From: a virus | Lineage: Duplodnaviria; Caudoviricetes | Direction: 5' to 3' (one strand) | Length of the DNA: 28,474 nt | Virus record (IMG/VR): IMGVR_UViG_3300023179_000399 | Location: 1-28,474 of that record | Part shown: piece after piece, positions 1 to 28,474 of the stretch | How positions within the stretch are numbered: position 1 is the first letter of the stretch | Layout of the letters: every line of letters begins with the position of its first letter | Notes under the pieces: generated by a model | Databases searched by the model: none | Seen by the model: the letters and a program-made list of their open reading frames with translations, nothing else | Told to the model about the DNA's origin: nothing | Program-made: the position numbers and the translations under genes

Positions 1-127
1 GGGGCTGGTTTTTCGACACGATCGGGGGACATGTCGAGGGGGCGACCAGGATGTGCGACCAGGGGGGCCTGCACGAATTCCGAAGAAAAAACTTGTGCCG
101 GCGGCGCGGTGGGGTAGGGTGGCGGTG
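1..127 (+). repeat. Left inverted terminal repeat (127 bp)
   Basis: 1-127 is the exact reverse complement of 28348-28474; the ends diverge after ...ggcggtg (ttc vs caa). Begins GGGG; internal direct repeat gcgaccagg at 42-50 and 55-63. Confidence 0.98.
93..120 (+). promoter_or_regulatory. Putative sigma70-type promoter inside the ITR (fires inward at both ends)
   Basis: A-tract, then TTGTGC-N16-TAGGGT. In the right copy an ATG follows 9 nt after the -10 box. Confidence 0.5.
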
Positions 128-8969: not shown

Positions 8970-10175
8970 TCAGTGGATTCCGATGACGATGGCCATGTCG
9001 GTGAAACGCTTGTCGCCGCAGGCATGTTTCCCGCCCGGCAGACAGTCACCGCAGTAGCCGGGGCAGACGAACACGCCTTTGGCCGAGAAGTCGCCCTTGA
9101 TCCCCGCCGCCTTGGCGGCATCGAGGACCTCCTTCATGTGGGTATTCCACTCCGGGGTCACCTTGCCGGTCCGCGATCGGCCGGGGGACTTGCTCTGGAC
9201 CTTGAGGGCGCGGAACGTCCCGCGGGCGATCCGGTGTCCGGTCTTGGGGTTCTTCAGCGTCAGCATCCGTTTCACCACCGCCTGGAACTTTTCGCGGGAA
9301 AGGACCCGTTCCAGCTTGGTCCCGCTGGAAAGGTTCATCACGTAGTTTGAGGGCCAGTTCCCGTTGTTGTCCTGATGCCACCGCTCGAAGAAGCTCCAGC
9401 TCTTGCTATACCCGTAGAACTCGTTCTCCGGGTAGCGTTCGCAGAAGTGCATCCAGTAGGTGAGGGTCTCCATCGAGTCCATGTCCCCGTCCACGTAGAG
9501 CCGGACCACCTGGCCGGGCTTGAACTTCGCCCGCGCCTCGGCCTCGATCCAGGTCTTGTCCCGCATGCGGATCAGCAGGGTGTTCTGTAGCTGCCGGAAG
9601 AACGGGGTGACGTGGCGCCACTGGCTGAAGCTGTAGCACCATCCCCGCTTGTTCTTGTCCTCGGGACTCACCAGGCAGTCACCGGCGCCGGGACAGGTGA
9701 CACCAGGCAGCGCGCTGAACGCCCAGAAGGGCAGCTTGATGTTGCCCTTGGCGAAGATGGTGTAGGGAGGCTTCTGTCCGATTGGGTCCTTGAGCCACTG
9801 GCGCATCTTGCGTATGGCGTTCAGGTAGGCTGTCCCACCGGGTTTGCCGGTCTTGGTGATGGTCTTGCCATCCTCGGTGAGGACCGCCTGCTCGAGGTCG
9901 TCGAACGCCTTGTTCAGCTTGGTGATGGTGTCGGCCAGCGCCGCGGTGTAGGCGGCGTCGTTGAGCTTCTGAAAGCTGACGAGGATTGCACCCGTGGGGG
10001 TGTAGTACCGGTCATAGACGTTGGCCGGGTTCTTCCGTTCCTGGGAGGCGCCATGCAGGGTGTTCTCGAACAGCTGGTAGGTCGTCGCACCCAGGAACTT
10101 GGACGCCTCCTTGAGTTCCCCGATGGTGACGTCGGAGAACGGGATCGGCGGTGGGACAATCAGGTCATCATTCAT
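8970..10175 (-). CDS. GP88-like (radical-SAM-related) Cys-cluster protein
   Basis: FSALPGVTCPGAGDC...WCY, VRLYVDGD, FYGYSKSW, N....LS, CPGYCGDC..HACG, terminal IGIH. Confidence 0.72.
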   Translation of the reverse strand: MNDDLIVPPPIPFSDVTIGELKEASKFLGATTYQLFENTLHGASQERKNPANVYDRYYTPTGAILVSFQKLNDAAYTAALADTITKLNKAFDDLEQAVLTEDGKTITKTGKPGGTAYLNAIRKMRQWLKDPIGQKPPYTIFAKGNIKLPFWAFSALPGVTCPGAGDCLVSPEDKNKRGWCYSFSQWRHVTPFFRQLQNTLLIRMRDKTWIEAEARAKFKPGQVVRLYVDGDMDSMETLTYWMHFCERYPENEFYGYSKSWSFFERWHQDNNGNWPSNYVMNLSSGTKLERVLSREKFQAVVKRMLTLKNPKTGHRIARGTFRALKVQSKSPGRSRTGKVTPEWNTHMKEVLDAAKAAGIKGDFSAKGVFVCPGYCGDCLPGGKHACGDKRFTDMAIVIGIH

Positions 10176-10789
10176 CCCATCTTGGAAGCCTGGCGGTTGA
10201 TGTCGTTGTCCGGGATGATGTAGGCGCCGCTTTCGACGTATGGATTCCGTCGCACGGGCCTGATCTTCTTCATGACCGATTGAAGGGTTTCACCAGTCGG
10301 AACAGTTCCCTTGACCTTCATGATCATTGCACCCGTCGACAGAATCTTCTTGATAGTCTTGGAAGACTGCTCGAATGGAACACTGATGGTCTTCAGATTA
10401 CCGCCGTGCGAATACTCGATTTCGACGTATGAATTGACACGAGGATTCCTGCGAATGGAGCGGTCTTTTCCATGAAGTTTGAAGACCTCTTTGAAGTCGT
10501 CCACAGCCTCCTCACGCGAAAGTCCGGCATAGCGGATCCATTCCCGCTTTCCGTCGACAATGGCCGAAACCTTCAGATGTCCGGATGGCTTGAGGACTTC
10601 GACACGCACCCCATCCCTTTGCATTGGATTCATCCGCTCAGTCATCGCTTCTTCCCGATACCCCCGGATGATCCTCTCCTGTTCGCGCTTGGATTTCCCG
10701 GCGATTGCCTCCTCGAGCCACTCGGGCAGGTCACTGTCACCGCGTGGATCCTCGGCGCCCGCGTTGTCGTATTCGGCTTTTCGGCTCAT
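10172..10789 (-). CDS. Modular hypothetical protein with three R-x-N-P motifs (205 aa)
   Basis: Start MSRKAEY coupled by ATGA; RMNP, RRNP, RRNP. Confidence 0.8.
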   Translation of the reverse strand: MSRKAEYDNAGAEDPRGDSDLPEWLEEAIAGKSKREQERIIRGYREEAMTERMNPMQRDGVRVEVLKPSGHLKVSAIVDGKREWIRYAGLSREEAVDDFKEVFKLHGKDRSIRRNPRVNSYVEIEYSHGGNLKTISVPFEQSSKTIKKILSTGAMIMKVKGTVPTGETLQSVMKKIRPVRRNPYVESGAYIIPDNDINRQASKMG

Positions 10790-11691
10790 GAATTTCGTTC
10801 CTTCTCGGCGGCGATCCTCGCCGCCTCCGGGTTCTTTGGTCCCTGCACCATCAGCATGCCCTTGTGCTTGCCCCACTTCTTGAAGTGGTCTTCCAGGCCG
10901 GATGGCGGTTCGCCTGCCAGAATGCACAAAACCCCCTTGTCGTCCAGCATTCCCTCGATCTCGGTCAGGGATGCCTCGTTGAGCGGCATGTCGGTATGGA
11001 TGACGTCGTAGAGCCGGTAGAAGTCCTCGCCGGTGGCCCGGTCGTAGTCCAGGACCCGGTCGCCGGGCTCGAGGACGGTCGAGAGCAGGCTGGTGACGGT
11101 CTGGCGGGGGTTGGCGCGGGACATCCTTGGATTCCGCATGTCGTCCGATGTGGAATTAAACCGTTTGCTCAAGGGGATTGCTTTCCCGGCATCGTCGTAG
11201 GTTACGGGATCGGCGGATTTGATCTGGGACGAATTGAACGGCATATAGACCCCGTATTCATCTCCAAGATCGGAAAGATCAGGAATGTAGAGGGTCCCAT
11301 ATCCCTTGCGGTCCAACTTCACTTTCTTTACCAGGTCTCCAATAAAATCCCGTGGTATGAGATCTGTTTCAAAATCAGGATCGTTCTGCCTTGGATGCGC
11401 CTTGTCCCACAGCCTGTCGATCTCGGCATGGCTTGACTTCCTGATCTTGCCGGGCTTGATGTAGTACGCCCCCACCTTTCCAAAGTGGGATGCGTGGTCT
11501 TTTGACTCGCTGAAAAAGTGGGCACCGTCTCTTGCTGCCGCCATGTCGAACTGGTTGAACTTGCTCTTTGTACCATGGAATACAGGTCCAACCGTATAAC
11601 CCATGGCTTTGGCCGCTCCATCCACCATCCCCTGTGCAGCCTTAACATCACCGCGTTTTACCGCGTCCATGTATTGGGCATCAGAATTCAT
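10786..11691 (-). CDS. ADP-ribosyltransferase-like protein (ART-PolyVal type) with a C-terminal extra module
   Basis: Y..AV..GD...AQ.MV..AAK..GY, VFHGT...F..F, G.HFF....A, QIKSADPVTYDD.G..IPLS.RFN. Confidence 0.78.
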   Translation of the reverse strand: MNSDAQYMDAVKRGDVKAAQGMVDGAAKAMGYTVGPVFHGTKSKFNQFDMAAARDGAHFFSESKDHASHFGKVGAYYIKPGKIRKSSHAEIDRLWDKAHPRQNDPDFETDLIPRDFIGDLVKKVKLDRKGYGTLYIPDLSDLGDEYGVYMPFNSSQIKSADPVTYDDAGKAIPLSKRFNSTSDDMRNPRMSRANPRQTVTSLLSTVLEPGDRVLDYDRATGEDFYRLYDVIHTDMPLNEASLTEIEGMLDDKGVLCILAGEPPSGLEDHFKKWGKHKGMLMVQGPKNPEAARIAAEKERNS

Positions 11692-11981
11692 GTATTGGCC
11701 GGCTTCCTGAACCTGGACAGCACCAGCTCCGTGCTCCTGAGCCCCAACGTGCCCACGAAGAACGCCACCGCATACTGCGTGTGCTCGGTGACGTGGAACA
11801 CGTCGAGGACCAGCGGCGTCAGGTAGTTCGCCGAGGCGGTCCCGGCGATCATCGTGACCATCGCGTCAAACTTCGATAGCCCCTTGATGTGGAACAGGCT
11901 ACCGAAAAACCCGGCGATCATGAACCCAATGTTGACGCCCAACCCGTTGAGCCAGTTGTTGGACACGTCGGAATCGTTCAT
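11688..11981 (-). CDS. Putative holin (3 TM, 97 aa)
   Basis: IAGFFGSL, AGTASANYLTP, AFFVG.LGL, basic C-terminus. Confidence 0.7.
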   Translation of the reverse strand: MNDSDVSNNWLNGLGVNIGFMIAGFFGSLFHIKGLSKFDAMVTMIAGTASANYLTPLVLDVFHVTEHTQYAVAFFVGTLGLRSTELVLSRFRKPANT

Positions 11982-11985
11982 CAGG

Positions 11986-12603
11986 TCAGGTGGTGATGGA
12001 TTTGACGGCCTCATGGACATCGGTGGAGTTCTGTCGGATCTTGGAGATGTCGGAGACCCGCTGCTTGATCGCCGCAACGATCTCGGGCGGGGCGGTCTCG
12101 ATGGCCATGATCAGCGTGTTGCGGACGTCCTCCGCGGTCTGGAGGATTCCCTGCGTCTGGTTCTGCTTGCGCGTCTTCCACGCCGCCACCGCGCCGGTGG
12201 CGAGCACCACCAGCTTCAGTCCCCAGTCGACCAATGGTCCCGTGGGCGTCGGGTTGAACCCGGAATTGATCCCGCGGGCGGTCTCGATGGCCGACGCGAA
12301 GTCGGGGTTGGTGGTGAACCCGTTGGTGGTGACGATGACGTTCGTCCAGATGCTGATCTGGGTGTTGGTGAAGATCAGCGGTTCCCGCTCGATCACGTTG
12401 GTGAGCACGACCCGCTCGCCGGCCACCAGGTTGGTGACCGTGAGCAGGTTGGTCCGCCAATGGACCTCGGGGACCGTGTTGGTGAGGAGCAGCACCACCG
12501 TGTTGGTCCGGGTGACCGGGATGATGGGCCGGGCGAAGGACGGGAAGGAACTGCACCCGCTGGCGGCGAGCAGGAGCAGCATAAGTGACATGAACTGTTT
12601 CAT
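11986..12603 (-). CDS. Lipoprotein with Thr-Asn repeats and an internal TM (possibly spanin-like)
   Basis: MKQFMSLMLLLLAASG-C lipobox, nine TN dipeptides, TM WGLKLVVLATGAVAAW, helical tail; adjacent to the holin. Confidence 0.75.
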   Translation of the reverse strand: MKQFMSLMLLLLAASGCSSFPSFARPIIPVTRTNTVVLLLTNTVPEVHWRTNLLTVTNLVAGERVVLTNVIEREPLIFTNTQISIWTNVIVTTNGFTTNPDFASAIETARGINSGFNPTPTGPLVDWGLKLVVLATGAVAAWKTRKQNQTQGILQTAEDVRNTLIMAIETAPPEIVAAIKQRVSDISKIRQNSTDVHEAVKSITT

Positions 12604-12604
12604 T

Positions 12605-14125
12605 TTAGAATCCAGTGATGACAGAACCAGAATCAACCCAGAACGGTTTCCACATGTACTCGATTGCCGTAAGAGCGTTGGCTCCAACAGTGAACCGAAC
12701 CGTATCGGTTCCGGCAACCGGAGTGTCCTGGACAAGCGTTAAAGTCCCCGTCAATGGAGTAGCGCCGTATTGCTGGAATGATGTGGGAGTGATGGTTGAA
12801 GCAGCACCACCACCTCCGACCGAAAGCACGTAAGTATAAAACCCACGACTAGCCGCGCTCCATGTGCGGACAGTCAAGACACCGGACATCATCTTGCTGT
12901 ATGTTCCAATCGTCATCAGGCTGATGTTTGCAAGTGCAGCAAACCCAGCGCCAGAGTTGTTGTTGAAGGTGTAGCCTCTATAGTCGTTATCTGCCAAAAT
13001 TCGCGCCGTATTCCCGGAGTTTGTCAGCGTTATTGTCCCGATAGAAGTGATATTTGTAATGGTTGCCGAAGTTCCGTAATATGCATTCGCATAAAAGTTT
13101 CCAGCAAGGTAACCATTACGAAAACGAAGAGATCCTGTTGAAAATCCAATATCAACTGTCGAATCAGTCAACGGAATGATGTTTCCATTGAATTGAATTG
13201 AGCTGGAGTCTCCAGAAAGGCTCAGGAATTTGAATGCGCTTGGCGATCCAACCCTAACGAATGGAGAATAAATATCCGAAAACACTCCCGTGTTCGGGGT
13301 TGTTATTCCGATTGGATAGGGTGCTGCCAGTATCTGTTGTACGCGGACTGGACTTGTGAATTGCGACCAGTCTGTCCTGAGAATTCCGAAATAGTTGGTG
13401 TAGATGTAATTTGCAACAGCCGCATATCCTGCGTTGTTCAAGTGGATCTGATCGGAACGCAAGGACGCTGGAGGAATGTCCAAGTTGTAGTCATACACGT
13501 CATTGGTAAGTGCCGGGTTGTATGCAGCAACAAGAGCTTCACGAATAGGTACATACCTCGTACCATACGTTGCTGAAAGTTGTGCATTAAGATTTGTGAT
13601 TGCCGTGTATCCAACTCCTCCTATGGCGTCGTAAGGCACATACTCTCCGTTCAAAACATTCATTACAAGCCACCTGTTTGAATTTGCTCCATTTGCAAGA
13701 GCAGAAATCATCAGGTTGATGTTTGAAATAATGTTTGCCGGGCTGTTGGTATAGACATCATTTCTTCCGGCCCAGATGATTGTTGGAAGCGGATACGAGT
13801 TCGTGTCTGCAACCATGCGAGTTTTTATCTGTGTTGAAGTCTCCCCTCCAACACCTCCATTGCTGACAGCAAACCCGCTCAAAAGTCCAAGAGTTGCCGG
13901 GTAAGCATTGCTTGACGGACTTGCTCCAGTGCCGGCAGTAAGGGAATCGCCCCAAGTTGCGATATTCAGCCAGTTTGTGGACAGTATGGGCGCAACTGGA
14001 GATAGTTGTGACGAAACATTTTGTCCACGAAGGATCAGGTTTGTCTTGACCGTGATGTTGTTGAAGGTCTGCTGGGCGAACAGGGTCGACACGCAAAGGA
14101 CCAGGTAGAGGATGAACTTTTTCAT
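12605..14125 (-). CDS. SGNH/GDSL hydrolase-domain spike-like protein with a signal peptide
   Basis: GDSLT (I), GVGG (II), GRND (III), DQIH (V); N-terminal MKKFILYLVLCVSTLFA; beta-rich fibre-like C-half. Confidence 0.88.
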   Translation of the reverse strand: MKKFILYLVLCVSTLFAQQTFNNITVKTNLILRGQNVSSQLSPVAPILSTNWLNIATWGDSLTAGTGASPSSNAYPATLGLLSGFAVSNGGVGGETSTQIKTRMVADTNSYPLPTIIWAGRNDVYTNSPANIISNINLMISALANGANSNRWLVMNVLNGEYVPYDAIGGVGYTAITNLNAQLSATYGTRYVPIREALVAAYNPALTNDVYDYNLDIPPASLRSDQIHLNNAGYAAVANYIYTNYFGILRTDWSQFTSPVRVQQILAAPYPIGITTPNTGVFSDIYSPFVRVGSPSAFKFLSLSGDSSSIQFNGNIIPLTDSTVDIGFSTGSLRFRNGYLAGNFYANAYYGTSATITNITSIGTITLTNSGNTARILADNDYRGYTFNNNSGAGFAALANISLMTIGTYSKMMSGVLTVRTWSAASRGFYTYVLSVGGGGAASTITPTSFQQYGATPLTGTLTLVQDTPVAGTDTVRFTVGANALTAIEYMWKPFWVDSGSVITGF

Positions 14126-14135
14126 GGGATTGATA

Positions 14136-14483
14136 TCAGAGCCAACCGGTGTTTCCGGTTCCGGAAGCCTTCACATACTGCACGGGCGCCGCGGGGTCGG
14201 AAACATCAAAGTAGATGCTCCCCGGAGGGGCGGCGATGACGCCTTCCGGGGACCCGTTTTCTGCATAGATCTGGGGACCATTGCCAGCCCCGGCAAACCA
14301 TGCGGTCCCGGTCCAGATGTATTCCCTTTGAAGGGTCGTGTCGTAGACCATCATTCCGGCATCGCCGGAACCCAGTCCCAGTGCAAGCCGCCCCGTCGTG
14401 TTGGTGCTTGGGAACGAGAACCCTCGGCCTGCGACCTTGGCGGTCGTCTCAGTCGGGTTGAAAAGGTAGGATTGTGAACTCAT
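14136..14483 (-). CDS. Spike/fibre adaptor protein B (115 aa)
   Basis: N-terminal ~62 aa paralogous to the next gene; C-terminus GSPEGVIAAPPGSIY...YVKASGTGNTGW as seen in phage spike proteins. Confidence 0.8.
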   Translation of the reverse strand: MSSQSYLFNPTETTAKVAGRGFSFPSTNTTGRLALGLGSGDAGMMVYDTTLQREYIWTGTAWFAGAGNGPQIYAENGSPEGVIAAPPGSIYFDVSDPAAPVQYVKASGTGNTGWL

Positions 14484-14486
14484 GGA

Positions 14487-15065
14487 TTATGCCTGGATGT
14501 AAGTACCGCCGACCGACACGGCAGTCCCCGCCTGCACATGGGTTGCAAGGCTGTTGTTCACCCCCGCCGCATAGTGGAAAAGATTGGCAGACGTGCCGGT
14601 GGCACTCGCCGTCAGCGCCGTGGTTGCCCCGGCAGAAAGCCCGGAAGCGACCACGGACAATGGCTGGAAGTTGGCGACGATGGCGGGGACTGGAAGGAGA
14701 ACCTGGAGGTTTCCGCTGGCAGCACCGGACGCCGCCGAGACGTTGAAACTGGCGTTGAATATGACCGCCCCGCCGATGGCGACGAACCGAGCATCCACGA
14801 CCGTGTAGGTGAACACCCGGCCGCCACCGGAATCGACCAGGGTCGGCGCCCATATGCCGGCACGCGCACCGCTGGCGATCCATGAGCTGCCGGTCCAGAG
14901 GAAATTCTGCTGAAAGTCGGCATCGTAGACCATCATTCCGGCATCGCCGGAACCAAATCCAAGTGCAATCCGCCCCGTCGTGCTGTTGCTGGGAAACGAG
15001 AATCCGCGGCCGGAGATCTTGGCGGTCGTCTCCGTCGGGTTGAAGAAGAAGGATTGCGAACTCAT
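14487..15065 (-). CDS. Spike/fibre protein A (192 aa)
   Basis: GMMVYD......W.G..W module plus a receptor-binding-head-like beta domain (G.W.PTL...G.L...LP.P). Confidence 0.8.
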   Translation of the reverse strand: MSSQSFFFNPTETTAKISGRGFSFPSNSTTGRIALGFGSGDAGMMVYDADFQQNFLWTGSSWIASGARAGIWAPTLVDSGGGRVFTYTVVDARFVAIGGAVIFNASFNVSAASGAASGNLQVLLPVPAIVANFQPLSVVASGLSAGATTALTASATGTSANLFHYAAGVNNSLATHVQAGTAVSVGGTYIQA

Positions 15066-15545
15066 TTACCTGAATTTGTTGTGGGTTCGGACCGGCTCGT
15101 AAAAATTGCGCCATTCGGAGGCGGTGGAGTAGTGGATCAGGAAAGCGCCGGTGATGTAGCTGTTGCCAACTGCTCCCTTGGTGACCCACACATTGAACTG
15201 GGTTCCCGCTTTTACAAACAGGGCATCCATGTCGGTCCGGTCCTCGAAAACATGCCATGCAGGAGCCACTGTTGCAGGGCTGTCTCCGAAAACATAATAG
15301 TGAACGACATCCGTCAGCTTGGAAAATGGGGATGTGGCAATTCCAGCAGAAGTGATGTTGAGTCCTCCTGCAACAGCAGCAAGAGCACCGGCAGTTACGC
15401 CAATGTTCACATGGCTGCTTACATGAAGCAGGACGCTGTCCGTATCAAACTTGAAGAATGTCGACGGAGCCGCTGTTGGGCCACCATTCTCGGTGAACGG
15501 AATTGTCGCAATACTGCGTTTCGGCGTGATGTCTCGTTCGATCAT
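15066..15545 (-). CDS. Beta-rich structural protein (penton/vertex candidate)
   Basis: Lies between capsid and spike genes; beta-strand pattern. Confidence 0.6.
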   Translation of the reverse strand: MIERDITPKRSIATIPFTENGGPTAAPSTFFKFDTDSVLLHVSSHVNIGVTAGALAAVAGGLNITSAGIATSPFSKLTDVVHYYVFGDSPATVAPAWHVFEDRTDMDALFVKAGTQFNVWVTKGAVGNSYITGAFLIHYSTASEWRNFYEPVRTHNKFR

Positions 15546-15555
15546 AAATAAAATT

Positions 15556-15612
15556 GCCCGCAGGCAGTGAACTCACCACCGGATAAATGTGGCATTCATA
15601 CCGCCTGCGGGC
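15556..15612 (-). terminator. Long intergenic stem-loop followed by a U-rich tract
   Basis: gcccgcaggc (15556-15565) / gcctgcgggc (15603-15612), inner tgaa/ttca and gccac/gtggt pairing, then aattttattt. Confidence 0.5.
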
Positions 15613-15632
15613 GTTGGACCAAATTTGACCGA

Positions 15633-16034
15633 TCAGGAGATGATCGACTTGTAGCCGTGAAGCGCCAAGGTGATGTTGTTCACGGCTGCACCCAAATTGG
15701 TGAATGTGAAGAGGATGTTCGACTGTGGCTCGAACACGATGGGCCGGCGCTGGAGGATCTGCTGGTAGGCATTGCCGCAAAGCACCCGCTGCGGGACCGG
15801 GGCCGAGGACAGGTCGCGTCCCGTGCTCTGGTCACGGATCGAGACGCTGAACGAGTTCGGGTTGGGCAGGGTGTTCTCCGTGTCGAACGCCGCGCCGCCG
15901 GTGCCCAGGATCGCCGACAGCTCGAAGCGGGAGTCGGCCTGCATGACCAGGGTGAAAGATGCCGTGGAGCCGACCGCCGCCGAGCACTGGGCGGTGACCA
16001 CGTAGACGAAGGGGATGGAATCGGTGTTGTTCAT
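15633..16034 (-). CDS. Small jelly-roll-like minor capsid protein (133 aa)
   Basis: All-beta pattern: F.L..I, V.I.DQ.TGR.L, P.VF...SNI.F.F.N, terminal L.L.GYK; directly after the capsid pair. Confidence 0.65.
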   Translation of the reverse strand: MNNTDSIPFVYVVTAQCSAAVGSTASFTLVMQADSRFELSAILGTGGAAFDTENTLPNPNSFSVSIRDQSTGRDLSSAPVPQRVLCGNAYQQILQRRPIVFEPQSNILFTFTNLGAAVNNITLALHGYKSIIS

Positions 16035-16042
16035 CGAAATTC

Positions 16043-16078
16043 AAAAGGCCCCGCCCACCATTGCGGACGGGCGGGGCC
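16043..16078 (-). terminator. Rho-independent terminator after the capsid genes
   Basis: Perfect 10-bp stem ggccccgccc/gggcggggcc followed by TTTT on the - strand. Confidence 0.85.
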
Positions 16079-16099
16079 AGATTCGGGGTTGCAGGTTGC

Positions 16100-16852
16100 C
16101 TACTGGCTCGGGCGGATGACGTAGCCGTCGAAGACCAGTCCCAGCTCCACGGATGGGGTTCCCGTCGCGTCGGCGGTGGTCAGGGCGGTGTTGGTGAAGT
16201 CGGGCGTGTTGCCCTCGGGGAAGTTGATGACGGCGCCGATCTGGATCTCGGGCTCGATGATCTGGATCGGGTCGATGTTGTAGACCGACTCGGCGCGCCA
16301 GTCGGGCTGTGCGCGCCAGTTGGTGTCGGAGACCTGGGTCTCGGCGGCAACACCCGTGCGGCTCGAACCCAGCGAGGCCACGTCGATGCCGAATCCGGGA
16401 GGGCACATGATGAACGGCTTGGAGATCTGGTAGTACAGCTTCTGGGCGAAGCTGATTTCCAGGACGCCCCGGTGCAGGAGGTCGTTGAGCTTCTCCATCG
16501 CCGAATTGGCCAGAGCGGTGTACCCGCGGAAGGCGAAGTTGGTGCCCGGGGTGAACCCCTGACGAACCTGCGGAACAAAGTTCGCGTAGGTGCGGATCTG
16601 GGTCAGGGCGAAGTATTCCTGCCCGAAGGAGGCGTTCTTCACCAGGTTGGTCTGCTCCAGCGTCTTGAAGATGCCGGAGCCACCGGCGCCAGGATCACTG
16701 GCACCGAGCGGGTTCGAGAAGAAGCTGACGCTGGACGTGCCGGCAGCGAGGAGGCGGACGAAGTCGTACTTCTGGCCGCGGACGATCTGGTAGCGCGAGA
16801 AGTCGGCAGAGCCGAACCGGCGCTGCAAACTGTTGAGGATGTCGGGATTCAT
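16100..16852 (-). CDS. Major capsid protein 2 (putative single jelly roll, 250 aa)
   Basis: Start MNPDIL; FF....G...KT...TNL....SFGQ.F.L..I and C-terminal LVFDGYVIRPSQ; paralog of the next gene; strong codon bias; followed by a terminator. Confidence 0.75.
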   Translation of the reverse strand: MNPDILNSLQRRFGSADFSRYQIVRGQKYDFVRLLAAGTSSVSFFSNPLGASDPGAGGSGIFKTLEQTNLVKNASFGQEYFALTQIRTYANFVPQVRQGFTPGTNFAFRGYTALANSAMEKLNDLLHRGVLEISFAQKLYYQISKPFIMCPPGFGIDVASLGSSRTGVAAETQVSDTNWRAQPDWRAESVYNIDPIQIIEPEIQIGAVINFPEGNTPDFTNTALTTADATGTPSVELGLVFDGYVIRPSQ

Positions 16853-16886
16853 GCTGGGATGATTCGAGGGTTCTTGGCGTCGTGTG

Positions 16887-17615
16887 TTACTGCATCGGGC
16901 GCAGGAGGACGCCGTCAAAAATGACGCCGATCTTCAGCGGGTTGGTGGTGTCGTTGACGACGTTGCTGGCAATCACCGGAACGATCCCGGACGGGAACGA
17001 GATCTTGGCGTTGAACTGCTGTTCAGCCTCGATCAGGATGTTCGGATCGGTGATGTAGACGTTCTTCCTGGAGCGGATCTGCGTGGCCCAGGGGAGACCC
17101 ACCACCGTGGTCGTGCCCGTGGTGGGAACGGCCAGGATCTGGTTGGCGTAGCTGTTCTCGTAGTCGACCTCGTTTCCGGGCGGCGGCAGGTAGAGGAACG
17201 GCTTCGGGACGGTCGCAAACGGACGCGCCCCGATGTTCAGGGTGAAGACACCAGCCTGGGCGAATCCGTTGATGATGTCGCTGGACAGGGTCCGGGTGTC
17301 CAACGTGGCCTGGTTGGCGAGGGTGAATCCGTCCACGTCATTGGACGGGATGCGGATGTCCGTGCTGATGGACTTCAGCAGGAAGTGGGTCTGGCCGAAG
17401 GAACCCGCCTTCGGAAGATTGGTGTCCGCCGTGGTGACGCCGGTCTGTCCGGCCACCTGGCCGAAGAAGTTCAACTCGGTGGTGCCGGCGGAGGGGTACT
17501 GGATGTAGGACCACCACTGCCAGCGGACAGCCTGCCAGCGGGAGTAGTCGATGGTGCCGAACTGGGCACTCGCCGCCATGATGACGGCTTCGGATTGGGT
17601 CGAGGAGGTAGCCAT
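16887..17615 (-). CDS. Major capsid protein 1 (putative single jelly roll, 242 aa)
   Basis: FFGQ..GQ...T.ADTNLPKAGSFGQTHFLLKSI and C-terminal VIFDGVLLRPMQ. Confidence 0.75.
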   Translation of the reverse strand: MATSSTQSEAVIMAASAQFGTIDYSRWQAVRWQWWSYIQYPSAGTTELNFFGQVAGQTGVTTADTNLPKAGSFGQTHFLLKSISTDIRIPSNDVDGFTLANQATLDTRTLSSDIINGFAQAGVFTLNIGARPFATVPKPFLYLPPPGNEVDYENSYANQILAVPTTGTTTVVGLPWATQIRSRKNVYITDPNILIEAEQQFNAKISFPSGIVPVIASNVVNDTTNPLKIGVIFDGVLLRPMQ

Positions 17616-17645
17616 TTTTGGGGTCTGGTCGGTGTTGCGTGATGG

Positions 17646-18413
17646 TTACTCGCCCCAGGCGTTCGACGGGAACGCGCTGGAATTGTCGAGCGCGCCGTTC
17701 ATCGGGGAGACGGATGCGAACCGGCTCGCGGCCATGTAGCCGGGCGGCAACTGGCCGACCGCGGACGTCGGGGTGTAGTCGAGGTACTCGCCGAGGCCGA
17801 GGGTGGTCGCCTGGGCCGGGGCGTACTGCTTGATGCCGGTGGTGATACCGTTGATGAGACCGGAGAGCAGCATTCCCTTGGCGAGGTTCGGGCTGGCCTT
17901 GCGGGTCAGCATCGCACCGAGCAGGGGAATGCCGACCGCGTAGGCGACCTTGACCGCCTTGGCGGTGTTCGCATCGGTCGGAATCGGCAGCATCGAGGTG
18001 TTGTCCGACTTCTTCATGTTGAGAAGATAGTTGGTCAACACGATGCCACCGACACCACCGGCGGCGATGGTGAGGTTCTCCTTGGAGAAGGAGGACTTCA
18101 GCTGCTGGGCGATGCCACCGGAGCCACCACCGAACGGGTTCATGCGGAACCCGCCCCGGCGATGCGAACGACGCCGGCGCGGATTGGCGCGGGCGTAGAT
18201 CACGGCCGCGGACTTGGACCCGCGCAGGTGGCGGACCTTGACGATCACGCGGCGGGCGCAGCGCCGGCTCGAGCGGCGCTTGGTGGCGCTGGCGACGTGG
18301 CGGTAGGTGGTCTTGGATCCGCGGCGCGTGGCGACCAGCGGATTCCGGCGGGTCCGACGGCGCGAGGACTTGCGCTTGCGACGCCGGGGATTGAGGAGCA
18401 TGAGGCTTTTCAT
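17646..18413 (-). CDS. Arg-rich core/DNA-condensing protein with hydrophobic C-half and N-P repeats
   Basis: Protamine-like first ~90 aa with LLNP, RRNP, RANP, RMNP, then 2-3 hydrophobic helices; first gene of the capsid operon. Confidence 0.8.
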   Translation of the reverse strand: MKSLMLLNPRRRKRKSSRRRTRRNPLVATRRGSKTTYRHVASATKRRSSRRCARRVIVKVRHLRGSKSAAVIYARANPRRRRSHRRGGFRMNPFGGGSGGIAQQLKSSFSKENLTIAAGGVGGIVLTNYLLNMKKSDNTSMLPIPTDANTAKAVKVAYAVGIPLLGAMLTRKASPNLAKGMLLSGLINGITTGIKQYAPAQATTLGLGEYLDYTPTSAVGQLPPGYMAASRFASVSPMNGALDNSSAFPSNAWGE

Positions 18414-18496: not shown

Positions 18497-18709
18497 CTAG
18501 CGCCGGACGGCAATCGGGGAGTCGTTCACGTAGATGATGCCTGCGATGGCATTCACGTTGTTGATCTCCAAAAGGAAGGCTTCCTTGTTCCTGCCAACAC
18601 GGCGAAGAACACGGGCCGCGGTATCACGACGACCGGACCAGGACAGGTTGGGGAAAATCACCTGTTCACCGGTGGCATTCAGCTCGGATTGACGGATGGG
18701 GATGGTCAT
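18497..18709 (-). CDS. Hypothetical protein (70 aa, MTIPIRQ...)
   Basis: ATGA coupling to the upstream gene. Confidence 0.7.
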   Translation of the reverse strand: MTIPIRQSELNATGEQVIFPNLSWSGRRDTAARVLRRVGRNKEAFLLEINNVNAIAGIIYVNDSPIAVRR

Positions 18710-19287
18710 CGACGGGAGGGCTTGTAGGCCATGAAGTAGTAGTAGCCGAAGGCGAGTGCGGCGACCGGCAGGATGTACTTGGCCATCGAGCCGATGGTGC
18801 CGACCGCCTGTCCGACGTTGGACACCGCGCCCGTGGCACCGACGACCACGTCCGTACCCGTGCTGGGCAGCCTTCCGACCAGTCCGCCGATCCCGCTGAA
18901 GAGGGCGTCGAAGAACCCGTTGTCCCGCGCATACTGGCGGAACGTGGTGTCGAAGGACCGGGCGTCGATGGGCGAGGCGAAGAGTCCCTGCTTGTCCCAT
19001 GCGGTGATGAACCGGCGGTTGGCCTCCTCGAGCCCGTAGGCCCGCTTCAGCGCCATATGCCAGGTCATCCAGTCGGACGCGGTCCACCAGGTGTCGAATC
19101 CCCAGTTGTCGTAGTCCGGCGTCGCAGTCGCCGAGGTGGGGTCATTGGCCGCGGGCCAGCCTCCGTCCGGGGCGTCACCAAACGGCTGGAGCGGATTGCG
19201 GATCCGCTGGAACCCAAGCGTGGATGTCGCCGGCTTTCCGGGTCCGGGATATCCGACCTCGCGGAATGGGACGAAGGGGGAATTCAT
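18706..19287 (-). CDS. Trp-rich tail-anchored membrane protein (193 aa)
   Basis: Start MNSPFVPF via TGATG; ends YILPVAALAFGYYYFMAYKPSRR. Confidence 0.82.
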   Translation of the reverse strand: MNSPFVPFREVGYPGPGKPATSTLGFQRIRNPLQPFGDAPDGGWPAANDPTSATATPDYDNWGFDTWWTASDWMTWHMALKRAYGLEEANRRFITAWDKQGLFASPIDARSFDTTFRQYARDNGFFDALFSGIGGLVGRLPSTGTDVVVGATGAVSNVGQAVGTIGSMAKYILPVAALAFGYYYFMAYKPSRR

Positions 19288-19499
19288 CAGTCCTTCCTGT
19301 GGGACTTGAGCAGGTACTGGGCGGCGATGGTGCCGGCGATGCCGACGAGGATCCAGAAGCAGGGATTCTGGAACGTCGCGCCGAAGGACACCGGGACCAG
19401 GTCCACCGACGGCTTCGGCCGCGGGGTCGTGGACGGTGTCGACGACGCGTCGGTCTCGACCGTGGTCTTGCCGAAATCCTGGGTGTAGGCGGCAGTCAT
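19287..19499 (-). CDS. Small tail-anchored membrane protein (70 aa)
   Basis: Thr/Pro linker, FWILVGIAGTIAAQYLL, basic tail. Confidence 0.8.
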   Translation of the reverse strand: MTAAYTQDFGKTTVETDASSTPSTTPRPKPSVDLVPVSFGATFQNPCFWILVGIAGTIAAQYLLKSHRKD

Positions 19500-19981
19500 T
19501 TGCGGCGGAGGATGAAGTACAGGGCGATGGCACCGACCGCCAGCGCGACGCCTCCGATGGCGAGCGTGGACATTGGCAGTCCTGTGGTGGGATTGACCGT
19601 GACGGTGGTGGCGGCGACCGCGGGCGTGAAGGGGATCGGGTCGGTCACACCGGACACGAACACGTAGAAATTGCCGGCCCGGTCCTTGGCCTTCACCCCG
19701 GAGACCTGCTGCCCGTTGTAGGTGATGGTGACCGCTTCAAGGAACGTCCACCCCTGACTGCGAAGCAAGGACATCCGGGTCTCGTTCATGACACCGCGGA
19801 GATAGGTGCCGACACCCCACTGGTTGGCGAGGTCGACCACATCGCTGAGGACATCGCCGACACCGTCGATGCGCGGCGTGGCCAGGCCCATGCCGCGACC
19901 GGTCAGGTATCCGTCAGGGTTGGCGTTCAGCGCGGAGGTGTAGCCGCGGGCGAAGGGGACGAATGGGGAATTGAGGTTCAC
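19496..19981 (-). CDS. Tail-anchored membrane protein (161 aa)
   Basis: GTG start overlapping the upstream TGA; ends LAIGGVALAVGAIALYFILRRK. Confidence 0.8.
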   Translation of the reverse strand: MNLNSPFVPFARGYTSALNANPDGYLTGRGMGLATPRIDGVGDVLSDVVDLANQWGVGTYLRGVMNETRMSLLRSQGWTFLEAVTITYNGQQVSGVKAKDRAGNFYVFVSGVTDPIPFTPAVAATTVTVNPTTGLPMSTLAIGGVALAVGAIALYFILRRK

Positions 19982-20298
19982 TTGCGCTTTCGGGTTGCGA
20001 GGAAGACGAGGGCGAGGGCCGCGACACCGACGCCCCCGGCGATCAGCATCGTGTTGGTCGAGATGCCGGACTGCGGGGTCGTGGTGGACGTGGTCGTGGT
20101 CGTGGTCGGGTTGGTCGTGGCGCCCGGTCGGGGTCGGTTGGTCCCGAGGGCGTTCTGGAGAGGCGGGACCCACAACGGCGCGGAAAGGGTCAGGACCGGC
20201 ATGATCCAGTCCATCCAGCCCTTGGCCTCGCTGGTGCGGTCGGCAAAGGAGGATCCCATGCCCTTGACGAAATCGACGCGTTGGCAGGAGCAGCTCAT
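19978..20298 (-). CDS. Tail-anchored membrane protein (106 aa)
   Basis: Poly-Thr linker; ends LIAGGVGVAALALVFLATRKRK. Confidence 0.82.
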   Translation of the reverse strand: MSCSCQRVDFVKGMGSSFADRTSEAKGWMDWIMPVLTLSAPLWVPPLQNALGTNRPRPGATTNPTTTTTTSTTTPQSGISTNTMLIAGGVGVAALALVFLATRKRK

Positions 20299-20732
20299 TT
20301 CTTGTCGACGTTCTCGGCGAGGAAGTTGCGCAAAGCGGCGAAGAATTTGATGACAGTGTCCAGACTTGCAACAACTTCAACTTGAACATTGCGGTCAGTT
20401 CGACCAAGGCTACCTGCTCTCCCGTCAACAGACCCGAAAAACAACCTGATAAGGCTAGGGAGTGGAGTGAAACACTGGGTAATGAGAAAAGAGTACGGTC
20501 CCCTGATAGATACCAAAAGGGGGCGAACCTGGCTGTAAAACCTCGACATGGTATTGGCGAAGTTGGCATCCCTGCCAGCCAAGATGCGGGGGTCTTCAAG
20601 AGACCTGGTCACCTCCGAAACCTGCGGTGGGATAGGAATCGAGGCCCCCATCGCCATGACGCTCCCGCTACTGGTAAATTGTATGTTGCGACCCATGCTG
20701 GGAGTTGTTCCAGCATCGCCCATGGAACGCAA
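20295..20732 (-). CDS. Hypothetical protein (145 aa)
   Basis: Fills the operon; its stop overlaps the next ATG. Confidence 0.65.
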   Translation of the reverse strand: MRSMGDAGTTPSMGRNIQFTSSGSVMAMGASIPIPPQVSEVTRSLEDPRILAGRDANFANTMSRFYSQVRPLLVSIRGPYSFLITQCFTPLPSLIRLFFGSVDGRAGSLGRTDRNVQVEVVASLDTVIKFFAALRNFLAENVDKK

Positions 20733-20735
20733 GCA

Positions 20736-21347
20736 CTATCCGACAACCAGCCGGTCCCGGTACTGTGGCACGGGACCGTCCTTGGCGCAGGGATCCATGA
20801 GGATCCACTCGCCGTTCAGCGAATACTCGACAACCACATGGTTGTAGTGCTGCGAATTACCTAACTTGACAGCAACAGCACGGGTTGGAATTCCAATTGA
20901 TGTAAGCATTGAGCCCAACAGAACTACATGGTCATCGCAGTCTCCATAGGCAAATCCTTTTGATTTGATGACATTCAGCAAAACGAGAGGAGTCTGAATG
21001 TATTCGGCTCCGTCAGGATCTGCCAAATAGACCATCTTTGAGATGACCCACGAATACAACGTATTGGCATTGCGCCGCACGTCGTTGTTGACCCTGGAGT
21101 AGAGGATTGCGACCGCCGCGGCCCGCACCTGGGGATTCCTTCCAAACTGCTCGATCACAAACTGCAACGCCCCGATGATGGTGATGGCATCCGGGGCGTC
21201 GGGCGAGATGGGGATTCGGTGGACCGTCCCGTCAGGATCCAGCAGCTTGAGCCGGACCGGCAGACGGGGTGCCACCGCGTACCGGGCGGTGCCGGCGTCT
21301 TTTTCGGGGCTCGAATACAGGACTCGCATCCCCGCATTCTCCACCAA
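20736..21347 (-). CDS. Transglutaminase-like Cys-His-Asp enzyme (candidate maturation protease)
   Basis: Y..DP.G.E..QTP, GDCDD....L.S.L.SIG, NHV, W..MDP. Start may be 21329. Confidence 0.85.
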   Translation of the reverse strand: MVENAGMRVLYSSPEKDAGTARYAVAPRLPVRLKLLDPDGTVHRIPISPDAPDAITIIGALQFVIEQFGRNPQVRAAAVAILYSRVNNDVRRNANTLYSWVISKMVYLADPDGAEYIQTPLVLLNVIKSKGFAYGDCDDHVVLLGSMLTSIGIPTRAVAVKLGNSQHYNHVVVEYSLNGEWILMDPCAKDGPVPQYRDRLVVG

Positions 21348-22698: not shown

Positions 22699-23109
22699 TC
22701 AGGAGATGAATTGGACCGCGGTGACTTTCGGGAAGGACTTGGTGTCGAGCAGCACGTCGAGCTGGTACGGGACGAACAGGGCCTTGGCATCGGTGGTGAT
22801 GCGCCATTCCTTGTCGATCACCGTCTCGGCCTTGAACTGGTGATGGTACTTCTGGTGGTGGACCCGCTTGTAGTCCGCGGTGCCGATGATCGCGTAGCGG
22901 ATCTCCGAGAGCTTCGCCCACTTCTTGCCGATGACCTCGGACATGCTGACGGGGCCATCGAGCACGTTGCCGGGCGTGGTCACCACCAGTTGTCCGCGCT
23001 GGTGGTCTAGGACGATCAGCTGCGCTGCCAACTGGTCGTCGAAACGGACCTTGGACCCGTCGGCAAGGACCAGTTCTTCGACGCTGTAAAAATGGGTCAG
23101 GGCGTTCAT
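22699..23109 (-). CDS. Hypothetical protein (136 aa)
   Basis: ATGA coupling; strong codon bias. Confidence 0.78.
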   Translation of the reverse strand: MNALTHFYSVEELVLADGSKVRFDDQLAAQLIVLDHQRGQLVVTTPGNVLDGPVSMSEVIGKKWAKLSEIRYAIIGTADYKRVHHQKYHHQFKAETVIDKEWRITTDAKALFVPYQLDVLLDTKSFPKVTAVQFIS

Positions 23110-23554: not shown

Positions 23555-23965
23555 CTACTTGCCCTTGCCCTTCGTGGTCGCGGTCGTGTCCAGCTCGACC
23601 TCGGACAGCTTGAACGCACGGTACTTCTTGCCCGTGGGGATCGCACCCATGATGCCGGCGAAAGTCTTGCCGATAAAACCGTCGCCAGGGTACTGCTCGA
23701 CGAGGTTGTCGCGCAGGACCTTGTTGAGGACGATGACCTGCGGCGTCCCGGTGGCGACGTCGACGACGTCGAGCAGCTCGGCTGCGGTCTGGATCGCGGC
23801 GCCGGGCTTCGGGGCGCGGCCGATGCGGATCGCGGACTTGACGGTGAACACCTTCTCGACCCCCTCGACCCACTTCCACACATCGGCGGTGACGTTCTTC
23901 TTGATGACGTAGTTGACGGACATGTTGACTTGTCGGCGTTCTGCGGCGGTGACAGTTGTAGGCAC
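23555..23965 (-). CDS. Putative single-stranded DNA-binding protein (OB-fold-like)
   Basis: Directly downstream of PolB with its own promoter and terminator; V.V.TG....IVL.KVL...L loosely recalls tectivirus SSBs. Start may be the ATG at MSVNY. Confidence 0.55.
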   Translation of the reverse strand: MPTTVTAAERRQVNMSVNYVIKKNVTADVWKWVEGVEKVFTVKSAIRIGRAPKPGAAIQTAAELLDVVDVATGTPQVIVLNKVLRDNLVEQYPGDGFIGKTFAGIMGAIPTGKKYRAFKLSEVELDTTATTKGKGK

Positions 23966-24101: not shown

Positions 24102-25940
24102 TCAACTCTCGGGTGGAAGGGAATCGAAATCGGCCCCGATGTCCACCATCTTTTTCGGGACGTAGGTCTTCCCGTCCGGCAACAGGCGCTTCTTGTCGTA
24201 CCCGCTGACGATCCGCTTGGTGACCTGGCGCCACGTCCCCAGGACCTTCACCGTCTCGTCCTCCTCGTCGGGGATCCGGTTGGCGCAGACGATGGATTCG
24301 CGCAGGCGCCACGGCTGCCAGAAGTCGGCGGTGCCCTCGTCGTAGAAGGTGTCCTGCATCTTCTTCGGGACGCCCTTCGCCTTGGTGACCTGACCCTTCT
24401 TCGGGGTCTCGTACCGGTACATTTTTGGGCTCCGCGTCTCCACGAACGTGGGTCGGTCCTCAAGCTTCATCTCGCCCAGCTCGGTGGAAAGCGGGAACGG
24501 AAGGTCCTTGCCTTCCCACTCGAAGAACAGCGAATCGGTGTCGCAGTAGATCAGGTTCTTCGCCCCGACCTGGTGCATGTAGCGCATCAGCGCCATGCGC
24601 CCGTAGGACGTCACGTAGGACGCGTGGAGGTAGTTGACGTGGTCGGGCAGAGGAATCTCCACCTCGGTCAGCAGCTTGCTCCCGAAGGGGATTCCCGGAC
24701 GTTGAAGAATCATGTCGCCGTCCTCGCCCTCCACCACCATGTCATCGGTCAGGTGAATCGAACGGGTGACCGACCCTTTCATGCCCAGTTGTCCGTAGAG
24801 ATTGTTCATGAGCAGCTTGTAGAACAGGGTCTTCCCCTCGTCGGGTTCGGCCTTGTCCAGCTCCTCCTTCCGCAGCCGGTAGAACGTCTTCACGAACTCC
24901 GCGTAGTAGGCCACGCCGGTCCTCGATCCGTAGCAGTCGTGCAGCTTGATGATCCGGGTCCCTTTGCGCAGCGCGTAGCGGATCTCGTGAACGGTCCACC
25001 ATCCCTCAACCGGTCCGACCGGGAAACAGACCTCGCCGCTCCCCTCACGCTTCACCGGCAGGGGTCCGATCAGTTCGGTGATGGGGATCTCCAACTCGAT
25101 ATGGCAGACCCCGTACAACTCGTCATCGGACCGGAGCAGGAAGTCCGCATCCTCGAGGCTTTTGCAGTCGAACCACTGGTCCGCCGCCTCCGGGAACTTG
25201 TTCAGCATCGTGCTCGGGTACAGCGAATTGATGTCGGTGTAGTAGATGTTCCGGCCCTGCGCACCGGTGCGGAACAACTCCACCCGGCCCCCGGAATAGG
25301 CGTTGCGGATCTCCGCCGCGGAGCACTGCCAGTTGTGGCCACCGAGCACCGGACCGTTCCAGATGCCCACGGCCAGCGACCCCAGCGTCGACTTCATGTC
25401 GCAGCCGAACGAGGCGGCGATGTCCTCGGCCAGGTGGACGGCGCGGCCTACGATCTCCACGTCGCGGAAGACGTACTCCTCGCCCTGGTCGTCAAACTCG
25501 AGCTTCTCGAGGCCCACGGACTTGCCGACCTTGGCCAGCGGCATCGGCCACAAGTTGCTCGAGTCGAGAAGGGTGACGTTGCGCCACTTGGCGCGGACGA
25601 GGCGGTTGCCGACCATGGTGATGTCCAGGTCGTCGAGGTGGTCCCGCCAGATGTTCCCGATGTCGTAGGCGAGGTTGTGGGCGTACAGGCGGGTGCCTGG
25701 GCCGCGGTCCTCGAGCCATTGCAGGAACGGGGAGACGTCCCAGACGGTCTCGGTGTACCGGCCGCGTTTGCGCTTGTGGTTGGCCAACGGGCGGTAGTGG
25801 AACTTCTCGCCGGTGCGGAAATCGATCCCGGCAATCTGGGTGCAGACCTTCTCGTAGCCGGGATGGTCCTGCTTTGCCTCGCTGAACCGCTTGGAATCGT
25901 CCTCGGTGTCGAAGGCGCAGAAGTTGGCGGTTTGGATCAT
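24102..25940 (-). CDS. polB: Protein-primed family B DNA polymerase
   Basis: ExoI FDTE, ExoII YAHNLAYD, ExoIII Y...DV, YSGGR, DINSLYP, KLLMNNLYG, YCDTDS, KMY, KAKGV; TPR1-like LP.K....FP.G...GWW insert. Confidence 0.96.
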   Translation of the reverse strand: MIQTANFCAFDTEDDSKRFSEAKQDHPGYEKVCTQIAGIDFRTGEKFHYRPLANHKRKRGRYTETVWDVSPFLQWLEDRGPGTRLYAHNLAYDIGNIWRDHLDDLDITMVGNRLVRAKWRNVTLLDSSNLWPMPLAKVGKSVGLEKLEFDDQGEEYVFRDVEIVGRAVHLAEDIAASFGCDMKSTLGSLAVGIWNGPVLGGHNWQCSAAEIRNAYSGGRVELFRTGAQGRNIYYTDINSLYPSTMLNKFPEAADQWFDCKSLEDADFLLRSDDELYGVCHIELEIPITELIGPLPVKREGSGEVCFPVGPVEGWWTVHEIRYALRKGTRIIKLHDCYGSRTGVAYYAEFVKTFYRLRKEELDKAEPDEGKTLFYKLLMNNLYGQLGMKGSVTRSIHLTDDMVVEGEDGDMILQRPGIPFGSKLLTEVEIPLPDHVNYLHASYVTSYGRMALMRYMHQVGAKNLIYCDTDSLFFEWEGKDLPFPLSTELGEMKLEDRPTFVETRSPKMYRYETPKKGQVTKAKGVPKKMQDTFYDEGTADFWQPWRLRESIVCANRIPDEEDETVKVLGTWRQVTKRIVSGYDKKRLLPDGKTYVPKKMVDIGADFDSLPPES

Positions 25941-26593
25941 GGTACAGGTTGATCTATGATGGGACCATCATCATACCTTGATTTAGGGCTTTTGGGATAC
26001 GCCCTGACAATGGGGTATGACAGCTTGTTCTTCATTTTCCGAATCTGCTGCCTATTGCCAACAAATTGGAAATACCTATGTTTAGGCATTGGTGGTACTT
26101 TTTCAATCCCGTTTTCCTTGGCCCACCTGACAGGATCTGTAATTCCTCTGTCTCTTAGTGTCATTGGATGAACTCTTTTACCATCTACAATGTAAGCATT
26201 GTCATGAGACTTTGTTGCTCCGGTATAAATCCAGTTAGTAGCCTGATAAATGATGCCGGAATGTCCTTGTTCACTGTCGGCATACGACACAATAGCGCAT
26301 GGTGCTTCAAGCATTTGAAGACTGTTTCCTACAAGGAATGATGCTGCATTCTTTTTGGTTGTTTGCACTACTAGTCTTGCTAGTTCAAGTAGCTTGAAGT
26401 CTCGGTCTTTAAATGCGTGTTTTTGAATTGGGGGTGAAGGTTGACCATATACGCAAACTCCTTCAATTTTTCCATCAATAACCAGTCCAAAACCATGCCA
26501 GAAAATAGGTGCTCTGTGAGAATAGTGTTTTGCGATTACCCATCTGTCGCAATCCTTTTTGGTGAGTTGTATTACATTCATTGTTGGCGACAT
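25937..26593 (-). CDS. Mom-like GNAT DNA-modification protein
   Basis: HYSH, GV..YG.P, LELARL, NAASFL...SL..L, IVSYAD..QGH.G.IYQATNW.YTG, KHRY. Confidence 0.85.
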   Translation of the reverse strand: MSPTMNVIQLTKKDCDRWVIAKHYSHRAPIFWHGFGLVIDGKIEGVCVYGQPSPPIQKHAFKDRDFKLLELARLVVQTTKKNAASFLVGNSLQMLEAPCAIVSYADSEQGHSGIIYQATNWIYTGATKSHDNAYIVDGKRVHPMTLRDRGITDPVRWAKENGIEKVPPMPKHRYFQFVGNRQQIRKMKNKLSYPIVRAYPKSPKSRYDDGPIIDQPVP

Positions 26594-27943: not shown

Positions 27944-27969
27944 GGGTTGTGGTGGAAGTGCAAGAAAAA
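27943..27969 (-). repeat. 27-bp sub-terminal inverted repeat, right copy (partner 417-443)
   Basis: Exact reverse-complement match. Confidence 0.92.
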
Positions 27970-28345: not shown

Positions 28346-28347
28346 TG

Positions 28348-28474
28348 CACCGCCACCCTACCCCACCGCGCCGCCGGCACAAGTTTTTTCTTCGGAATTC
28401 GTGCAGGCCCCCCTGGTCGCACATCCTGGTCGCCCCCTCGACATGTCCCCCGATCGTGTCGAAAAACCAGCCCC
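28348..28474 (-). repeat. Right inverted terminal repeat (127 bp)
   Basis: Exact reverse complement of 1-127. Confidence 0.98.

Follow-up and report, generated by a model that had tools for sequence, protein, structure and literature searches.

A basic-Asn-Pro motif at the module junctions of phage cargo proteins, a candidate cut site for a transglutaminase-fold viral enzyme

A motif common to the core and cargo proteins

The window (the whole 28,474-nucleotide stretch of DNA that was analyzed) is a complete linear phage genome of 28.5 kb, in which a putative core protein and three cargo proteins carry copies of a short motif, or tag, made of Asn-Pro (NP) preceded by a basic residue. We propose that the transglutaminase-fold cysteine enzyme of the virus cuts at the tag and so releases small enzyme modules from polyproteins that are probably packed in the virion, a reading in which sequence comparisons give us about even confidence. 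The core, cargo, enzyme, polymerase and capsid genes discussed below, and the tags in them, all lie on the minus strand.

An earlier sequence-only reading of this DNA had described eight R-x-N-P motifs in four proteins and taken them for a protease cleavage site or docking tag that loads cargo into the virion. All eight are where it placed them, and none occurs in the other 40 curated genes. Three belong to the putative core protein (17646..18413, 255 aa, 561 homologs): RRNP (N24, 18339..18350, from the sequence), RANP (N77, 18180..18191, with N-P unchanged in 40/40 aligned homologs) and RMNP (N92, 18135..18146), the last of which stands directly before the helical domain and is absent in one subgroup. 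An LLNP (N8, 18387..18398), also part of that claim, has its N invariant in close homologs. Cargo gene 1 (10786..11691, from Pfam and homologs) consists of an ART-PolyVal module, a double tag MRNP-RMS-RANP (11107..11139, from the sequence) and a constant C-terminal domain (10789..11106, delimited by homolog search) that is a candidate anchor. Its RANP (N194) follows soon after its MRNP (N187), where the ART-PolyVal match (Pfam, residues 37-161) ends, as had been described. On visual inspection the constant domain resembles a degenerate methyltransferase; it has no PHROG match.

The tags of cargo gene 2 (10172..10789, 205 aa, from the sequence), namely RMNP at N54 (10625-10636), RRNP at N115 (10442-10453) and RRNP at N182 (10241-10252), do divide the protein, into four pieces of 53, 61, 67 and 24 aa rather than the 30-60 aa first given. 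Cargo gene 3 (8970..10175) is GP88-like (PF17338, Pfam), and its RKNP at N49 (10026-10037), claimed near aa 50, follows a 48-aa leader and keeps its N-P in 6/6 aligned homologs. The three cargo genes are indeed adjacent and coupled, with overlaps by ATGA. It is also correct that the protein-primed-type family B DNA polymerase (PolB; 24102..25940, PF03175, Pfam) has no NP, hence no tag, and that the helicase has no R-x-N-P, its two NP standing in other contexts. The missing NP of PolB is uninformative, as its homologs have 0.31 NP per sequence vs 0.71 expected.

The proposed enrichment over shuffled sequences is present. The 44 curated genes contain 8 R-x-N-P vs 1.26 expected, and 0 of 600 shuffles reach 8. 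Of the 4,290 a-x-b-c patterns that occur in these genes, R-x-N-P also ranks first (Poisson 4.3e-5). After correction for the choice among 8,000 possible patterns, the value is ~0.3, and hence the excess in the window alone is statistically borderline. An independent set of 80 related loci includes 8, besides the window's own record, that reach the cargo block. In the 19 cargo open reading frames of these 8 loci, basic-NP occurs 38 times vs 3.5 expected, with no more than 10 in any of 500 shuffles, and R-x-N-P occurs 15 times vs 0.95 expected. The motif is conserved among homologs in the core tails, at the ART-gene junctions and at the GP88 tag. The R-x-N-P pattern is thus real, but R occupies position -2 in only 15 of 78 distinct junction contexts and position -1 in 60%. 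Therefore R-x-N-P is a subset of the motif, which is (R/K)x-NP or x(R/K)-NP.

Tags between shuffled modules

Homologs of cargo gene 1 range from 235 to 860 aa and carry other module strings. The ART-gene set comprised the best 120 of 328 homologs found by the constant C-terminal domain, plus the window protein (121 in total). Split at the tags, these proteins show 78 architectures, a count that depends on the tags; their modules include ART-PolyVal, methyltransferase, GNAT, DUF5872 and the ParB C-terminal domain, and the median piece is 131 aa vs 515 aa for whole proteins. We trimmed 15 module cores free of junction tags, mapped them back and read the gaps of at most 75 aa between adjacent cores. 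NP was found in 233 of 233 such gaps, covering 33 ordered pairs of modules whose reference boundaries came from the tag-based split, and R or K stood at -1 or -2 in 230 of them. There was one NP in 166 gaps, two in 66 and three in 1. At N-termini 24 of 70 have a tag and 46 have none.

A comparison blind to the tags gave a similar picture, with 320 of 950 homology breakpoints lying at most 6 aa from an NP vs 89 by chance; of the 172 dipeptides compared, LN alone scored above NP, and it belongs to the same junction. Module ends matched without the NP were followed by NP in 37/37, 39/39, 21/21, 17/18, 23/23 and 143/153 cases, and never by SP, TP or DP. The junction NP is strictly retained while the flanking residues vary. 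None of the 78 contexts has an acidic residue at -1 or -2, a basic residue at +1/+2 occurs in only 31, and the hydrophobic preference near the tags is weak (104/149 vs a background of 0.59).

Since the tag is present at every joint, optional at N-termini and uncommon in module cores, a separation signal is the best fit to its distribution, and the fixed core of just two residues is more in keeping with an enzyme site than with a binding site. Of the two roles considered at first, cleavage or docking, both draw on a motif that is real, selected at the protein level, conserved, common to core and cargo and placed at module borders, with an intact candidate enzyme in the virion block; the junction pattern favors release over loading. 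A docking or packaging tag that is never cut would bind, through basic-NP, a pocket on the core, the capsid interior or another scaffold, with additional copies adding grip. It would account for tags on minimal leaders, for tags in tandem at a spacing of five residues (such as NPMKT-NP) and for the variable copy number in core tails, and it would fit a genome where a packaging ATPase was not found. However, one or two tags per protein should then suffice, yet every junction keeps one and most N-termini have none. The fixed part also amounts to just two residues, and hydrophobic residues are only weakly preferred. We consider docking without cutting a possible but rather unlikely explanation.

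Exchange of modules at the tags

Shuffling is also seen in the 205-aa protein, for which we read 4 of 5 matches, the fifth being the window protein itself. In one match (P0121) the second module is duplicated tag to tag, and in two others (P0124 and P0125) the first and last pieces are kept and the middle ones are swapped at the tags. In contigs of two other runs, from otherwise near-identical viruses, the ART module is replaced by 266 or 772 other bases. The DNA joints, at 11119 and 11115, coincide with the RANP tag (11107-11118), and the loose end X3 at the swap, read by hand, gives K-V-R-A-N-P. At 61 tag sites all Asn and Pro codons are used in near background proportions. Because all synonymous codons occur, the constraint acts on the protein, and a DNA recombination site as the tag's role is ruled out.

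The ART domains of cultured tailed phages served as a control (5 of 11 records). All 5 end without NP (DIRFS, DILFS, RITFS, SITAS and DLLAQ), and therefore the fold itself does not include the tag. These ends (L081-L085) resemble one another as D-I-[RL]-F-S-like strings, which are possibly the tailed phages' own junction tag.

The same observations bear on the view that the motif has no dedicated partner. It would then be a relic of gene fusions, a site of DNA recombination, an Asn-Pro bond that slowly breaks by itself, or a structural element such as a turn or a helix cap. Turns are commonly formed by Asn-Pro, and some conserved NP appear to have a structural role, as in front of the membrane helix of 19287-19499 and in the VYL..NP of an ART. 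Non-enzymatic cleavage after Asn exists (PMC8582265, the consulted part of which holds no passage on Asn-Pro). The strict retention of NP amid varying flanks, the free synonymous codons, the tagless tailed-phage ARTs and a second Pro at most 5 residues away in 54 of 97 tag contexts, which is unlike a helix start, make this view very improbable.

A separate observation concerns a 44-aa module (VKPRKGE...FVSRCMSEE...QRIAVCLSK) that is bracketed by tags in L061:17885-18058, L015, L030, L046 and P0125. It once forms a whole 57-aa gene and has no PHROG match.

The basic tail of the core protein

The name "core" is suggested by charge and position, as residues 1-95 contain 35 R+K and no D or E. A model with a mean predicted local distance difference test score (pLDDT) of 58.7 places a predicted beta-hairpin at 56-76, ending at N77, and a predicted helical domain at 101-204, which is not strongly hydrophobic. 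Against 48,161 PDB chains the model matched generic helical bundles (best Z 6.7, root-mean-square deviation 10.5), giving no assignment, and the domain had no match in cultured phages. Past residue 10, the tail contains 1-3 NP in every close homolog (120/120). In the tails of a distant set (108 full-length proteins of 150 representatives) NP occurs 212 times vs 18 expected; SP (46 vs 51) and TP (27 vs 27) are at chance. Arg flanks the NP of core tails on both sides (R at +2 in 45%, at +3 in 44%).

SPKK-type DNA-binding motifs consist of S/T-P followed by basic residues, and the tag could similarly be a DNA clamp, in which the Asn-Pro turn presents the adjacent arginines to DNA. The Arg on both sides of NP in core tails is what such a clamp would need, and some spacers are polybasic (NPKRKIKRGLRK). 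Nevertheless, SP and TP, the usual equivalents, show no excess comparable to that of NP in these tails. Many junction tags have a single basic residue in an acidic context (D-I-R-NP, E-F-R-NP), and the side following NP is basic in a minority of junction contexts. The clamp is hence unlikely in our estimate.

The candidate enzyme

The putative processing enzyme is encoded at 20736..21347, with a likely start at 21329, in the virion block. It was recognized by Transglut_core (PF01841), the sole cysteine-enzyme match in the window, and its C131, H164 and D179 (Cys-His-Asp) are invariant in 23/23. Proteases with a transglutaminase fold exist. As this fold can also act on side-chain amides, the enzyme might link rather than cut. 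In that case the Asn of the tag would donate the acyl group, and cargo would be tied to core or membrane proteins by transpeptidation or an isopeptide cross-link. Besides the fold, the Asn being stricter than the Pro in the core and the presence of tags on minimal leaders agree with linking. It leaves the need for a tag at every junction unexplained, no acceptor motif was identified, and we regard it as quite improbable.

Several observations concern the neighborhood of the enzyme gene. Right after it, at 18706-20732 and in the homologous blocks of L014, L015, L017, L046 and L056, lie genes for small membrane-tailed proteins with frequent G-hydrophobic-G strings (RIDGVG, CGLG), and GLGEY also occurs in the core. 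It is possible that these strings form a second code and are what the enzyme actually acts on. Within the block, a 70-aa membrane protein (19287-19499) has FRNP before its helix in 28/30 homologs and FQNP in the window. This may be a tag or a helix cap, and we did not count it as a tag. The frame of an open reading frame at 20295-20732 is doubtful; it has a homolog in no locus, relatives have a membrane-tailed gene there, and it may not be a gene. Among the capsid candidates 1/103 has a basic-NP, a near absence that favors the cut-site reading, although weakly, given that the sites are conserved.

Proposed sequence of events and points against it

If the tag is cut, the following course may be envisaged. 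As the shell assembles around the DNA bound to the core protein, cargo polyproteins would enter the particle, perhaps held in place by the constant anchor domain or a membrane tail. The enzyme, itself in the particle, would then cut at or beside Asn-Pro, loosening the core and yielding pieces of ~130 aa that would enter the host with the DNA. Modules could be exchanged at the tags at no cost, because each of them would end up free.

A number of findings weigh against cleavage at the tags. Some tags follow leaders of only 2-3 residues (MRK-NP, MR-NP; MRE-NP in gp41 of the cultured phage SSIP-1) and 66 of 233 junctions have doubled tags, which in both cases leaves little to release. Basic-NP has 16 matches inside module cores, where it is uncommon (VYLKNP in an ART is an example), and the GP88-like gene has an internal LKNP (9246-9257). 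In the core, the P of the N8 site is replaced by A in 59/114 close homologs. The 108 distant core tails have from 0 to 6 tags (94 have at least 1 and 14 none), and in several the sole tag is near residue 8; hence severing the core tail from the helical domain is not universal. Finally, because the homologous proteins are related, the counts overstate independence and do not represent independent events.

Comparison with known systems

The closest precedent for the cargo is the polyvalent proteins of phages, multi-domain proteins for which packaging and processing have been proposed (Iyer et al. 2017, PMC5512222). As there, ART, methyltransferase, GNAT and ParB-type modules occur in one polypeptide in shuffled order, and the genes have a late-gene location, here between holin-like and membrane-tailed genes. 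Processing, as that paper presents it, is by built-in zincin metallopeptidases (PMC5512222), whereas the zincin signature HExxH is present in 0/121 ART-gene proteins. The present system also differs in its fixed junction motif and apparently tailless virus, and the main text of PMC5512222 uses neither the word "linker" nor "GP88".

The likeness to adenovirus maturation that the sequence-only reading had drawn holds as "works like". The passages of PMC4246237 on AVP describe a cysteine enzyme that recognizes a short motif common to core and other internal precursors and primes uncoating. A cysteine enzyme candidate and a short motif common to core and cargo are found here as well. However, the AVP sites are (M/I/L)XGG|X or (M/I/L)XGX|G (PMC4246237) vs basic-Asn-Pro, not Gly-Gly, here; the enzyme has a transglutaminase fold, with no adenain-type protease found, and the tagged set includes shuffled enzyme cargo.

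The prohead proteases of SPN3US, phiKZ and T4, in the sections of PMC10052503 that deal with them, recognize a short motif with several sites per substrate in host-entering cargo, and the propeptides of these ejection proteins also target them. In SPN3US, 13/14 sites remove N-terminal propeptides (PMC10052503), while here tags part internal modules, and these are tailed phages with a different enzyme. By analogy with the T4 propeptides as described there (PMC10052503), the roles of targeting and cutting are compatible. In its workings the system may resemble the maturation of adenovirus or of giant phages, with polyvalent proteins as the substrates. In the open-licence literature, searches for this virus group or for the motif gave no description, and we found no report of a junction code or maturation protease for tailless phages.

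The cultured phage SSIP-1

SSIP-1 is a cultured, halophilic, membrane-containing icosahedral phage of a bacterium. Its gp34, annotated as structural, is homologous to the window's enzyme (E 4e-11) and is the enzyme's only cultured-phage match. RENP opens SSIP-1 gp41 (MRE-NP, N4), recurs directly before the hydrophobic membrane tail of gp41 (N256) and precedes the last domain (164 aa) of the 2,319-aa structural gp43 (N2155). The late block has 4 R-x-N-P vs 0.8 expected (P ~0.008) and the other genes 1 vs 0.45; the excess of basic-NP is weaker (6 vs 2.5). Given the small numbers, we treat the RENP pattern as a lead. The best match of the core profile, a weak one (E 0.017), is SSIP-1 gp44, just before gp45/gp46; gp44 has NP at N45 and N54. 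Pairwise profile tests gave no significant match to gp44, gp45, gp46 or the end of gp43, and the window gene at 22699-23109, considered as a match of the gp43 end, was not supported by the profile test. SSIP-1 differs in its circular, 43.8-kb genome with an ATPase and an integrase, in its acidic proteome and in holding only 5 R-x-N-P overall; capsid homology to the window candidates was not detected. As a side observation, gp43 (L088:26863-33822) is multi-domain with an internal repeat (DEPEGMNTADL twice).

Genome setting

The genome ends are inverted terminal repeats of 127 nt (1..127 and 28348..28474, found by repeat analysis and assigned to no strand). In addition to the Transglut_core gene, it encodes PolB of the protein-primed type, a Mom-like gene, a holin-like gene and spike-like genes. 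Near-identical DNA is present in freshwater metagenomes from other studies. Scanning IMG/VR with five queries gave no relatives, and the genome scan for a host gave only two short contigs, from bins of different phyla, and no host assignment. This is an uncultured bacterial virus that is probably tailless.

Two adjacent genes encode putative major capsid proteins 1 (16887..17615, from an Atlas lead and homologs) and 2 (16100..16852), which are paralogs (27-31% identity) and likely capsid proteins. The label "tailless jelly-roll" is tentative, because its sole fold evidence is the Atlas lead, at 0.77, to the PM2 P2 and PRD1 P3 clusters. A capsid-protein model built without an alignment reached a pLDDT of 27.5. 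Searches of enzyme and capsid alignments against PDB sequences gave no useful match, and in cultured phages the capsid protein had only weak, unrelated matches. Several small window proteins have C-terminal hydrophobic tails, which might point to an internal membrane. An FtsK/HerA-type packaging ATPase was not found in Pfam/PHROG searches, nor is there a conserved Walker A in the genome; the Walker A in 23555-23926 was rejected as an ATPase sign, as the motif is not conserved. For ATPase-less jelly-roll viruses, assembly around DNA is suggested in the relevant part of PMC5894146.

Other features lie outside the tagged genes. The Mom-like gene and PolB are preceded by the gene of a 303-aa basic protein (26597-27508, net charge +39), which is present in 9 loci and is a terminal protein candidate. 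The Mom-family DNA modification gene (25937-26593, PF25680) adjoins PolB, has no homolog in the other loci and may be a recent anti-restriction gain. Each genome end also contains, upstream of genes that face inward, one arm of a perfect 27-nt inverted pair (417-443 / 27943-27969) and one of a weaker 26-nt pair (460-485 / 28321-28346); these are possible shared early promoters. The spike-like proteins of 14136-14483 and 14487-15065 share the start MSSQS-x-[LF]-FNPTE and a 199-nt repeat; relatives retain the [YF]NP[TS] start on at least one spike gene, and it is probably an attachment motif, separate from the basic tag.

Implications

The tag in the window and the RENP of SSIP-1 suggest a broader idea, which we put forward tentatively and consider somewhat doubtful as a whole. 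Tailless membrane-containing phages, from freshwater to the halophilic SSIP-1, might share a code in which a virion transglutaminase-fold enzyme reads basic-Asn-Pro and, in the particle, cuts cargo off membrane or domain anchors (or ligates at Asn), so that any tag-bracketed enzyme would be a deliverable anti-host module. The junction-code idea is testable now, because SSIP-1 is cultured, has a homologous enzyme and carries RENP at domain borders. How tailless phages load and release anti-defence proteins is largely unstudied. If the broader idea is true, bacterial jelly-roll viruses would have a maturation protease of new fold and specificity, possibly of the unusual Asn-Pro type, and the shuffling of effectors as plug-in cassettes would be explained. 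A four-residue code for both processing and cassette evolution would also offer a rule by which virion cargo could be recognized in the thousands of genomes that lack annotation.

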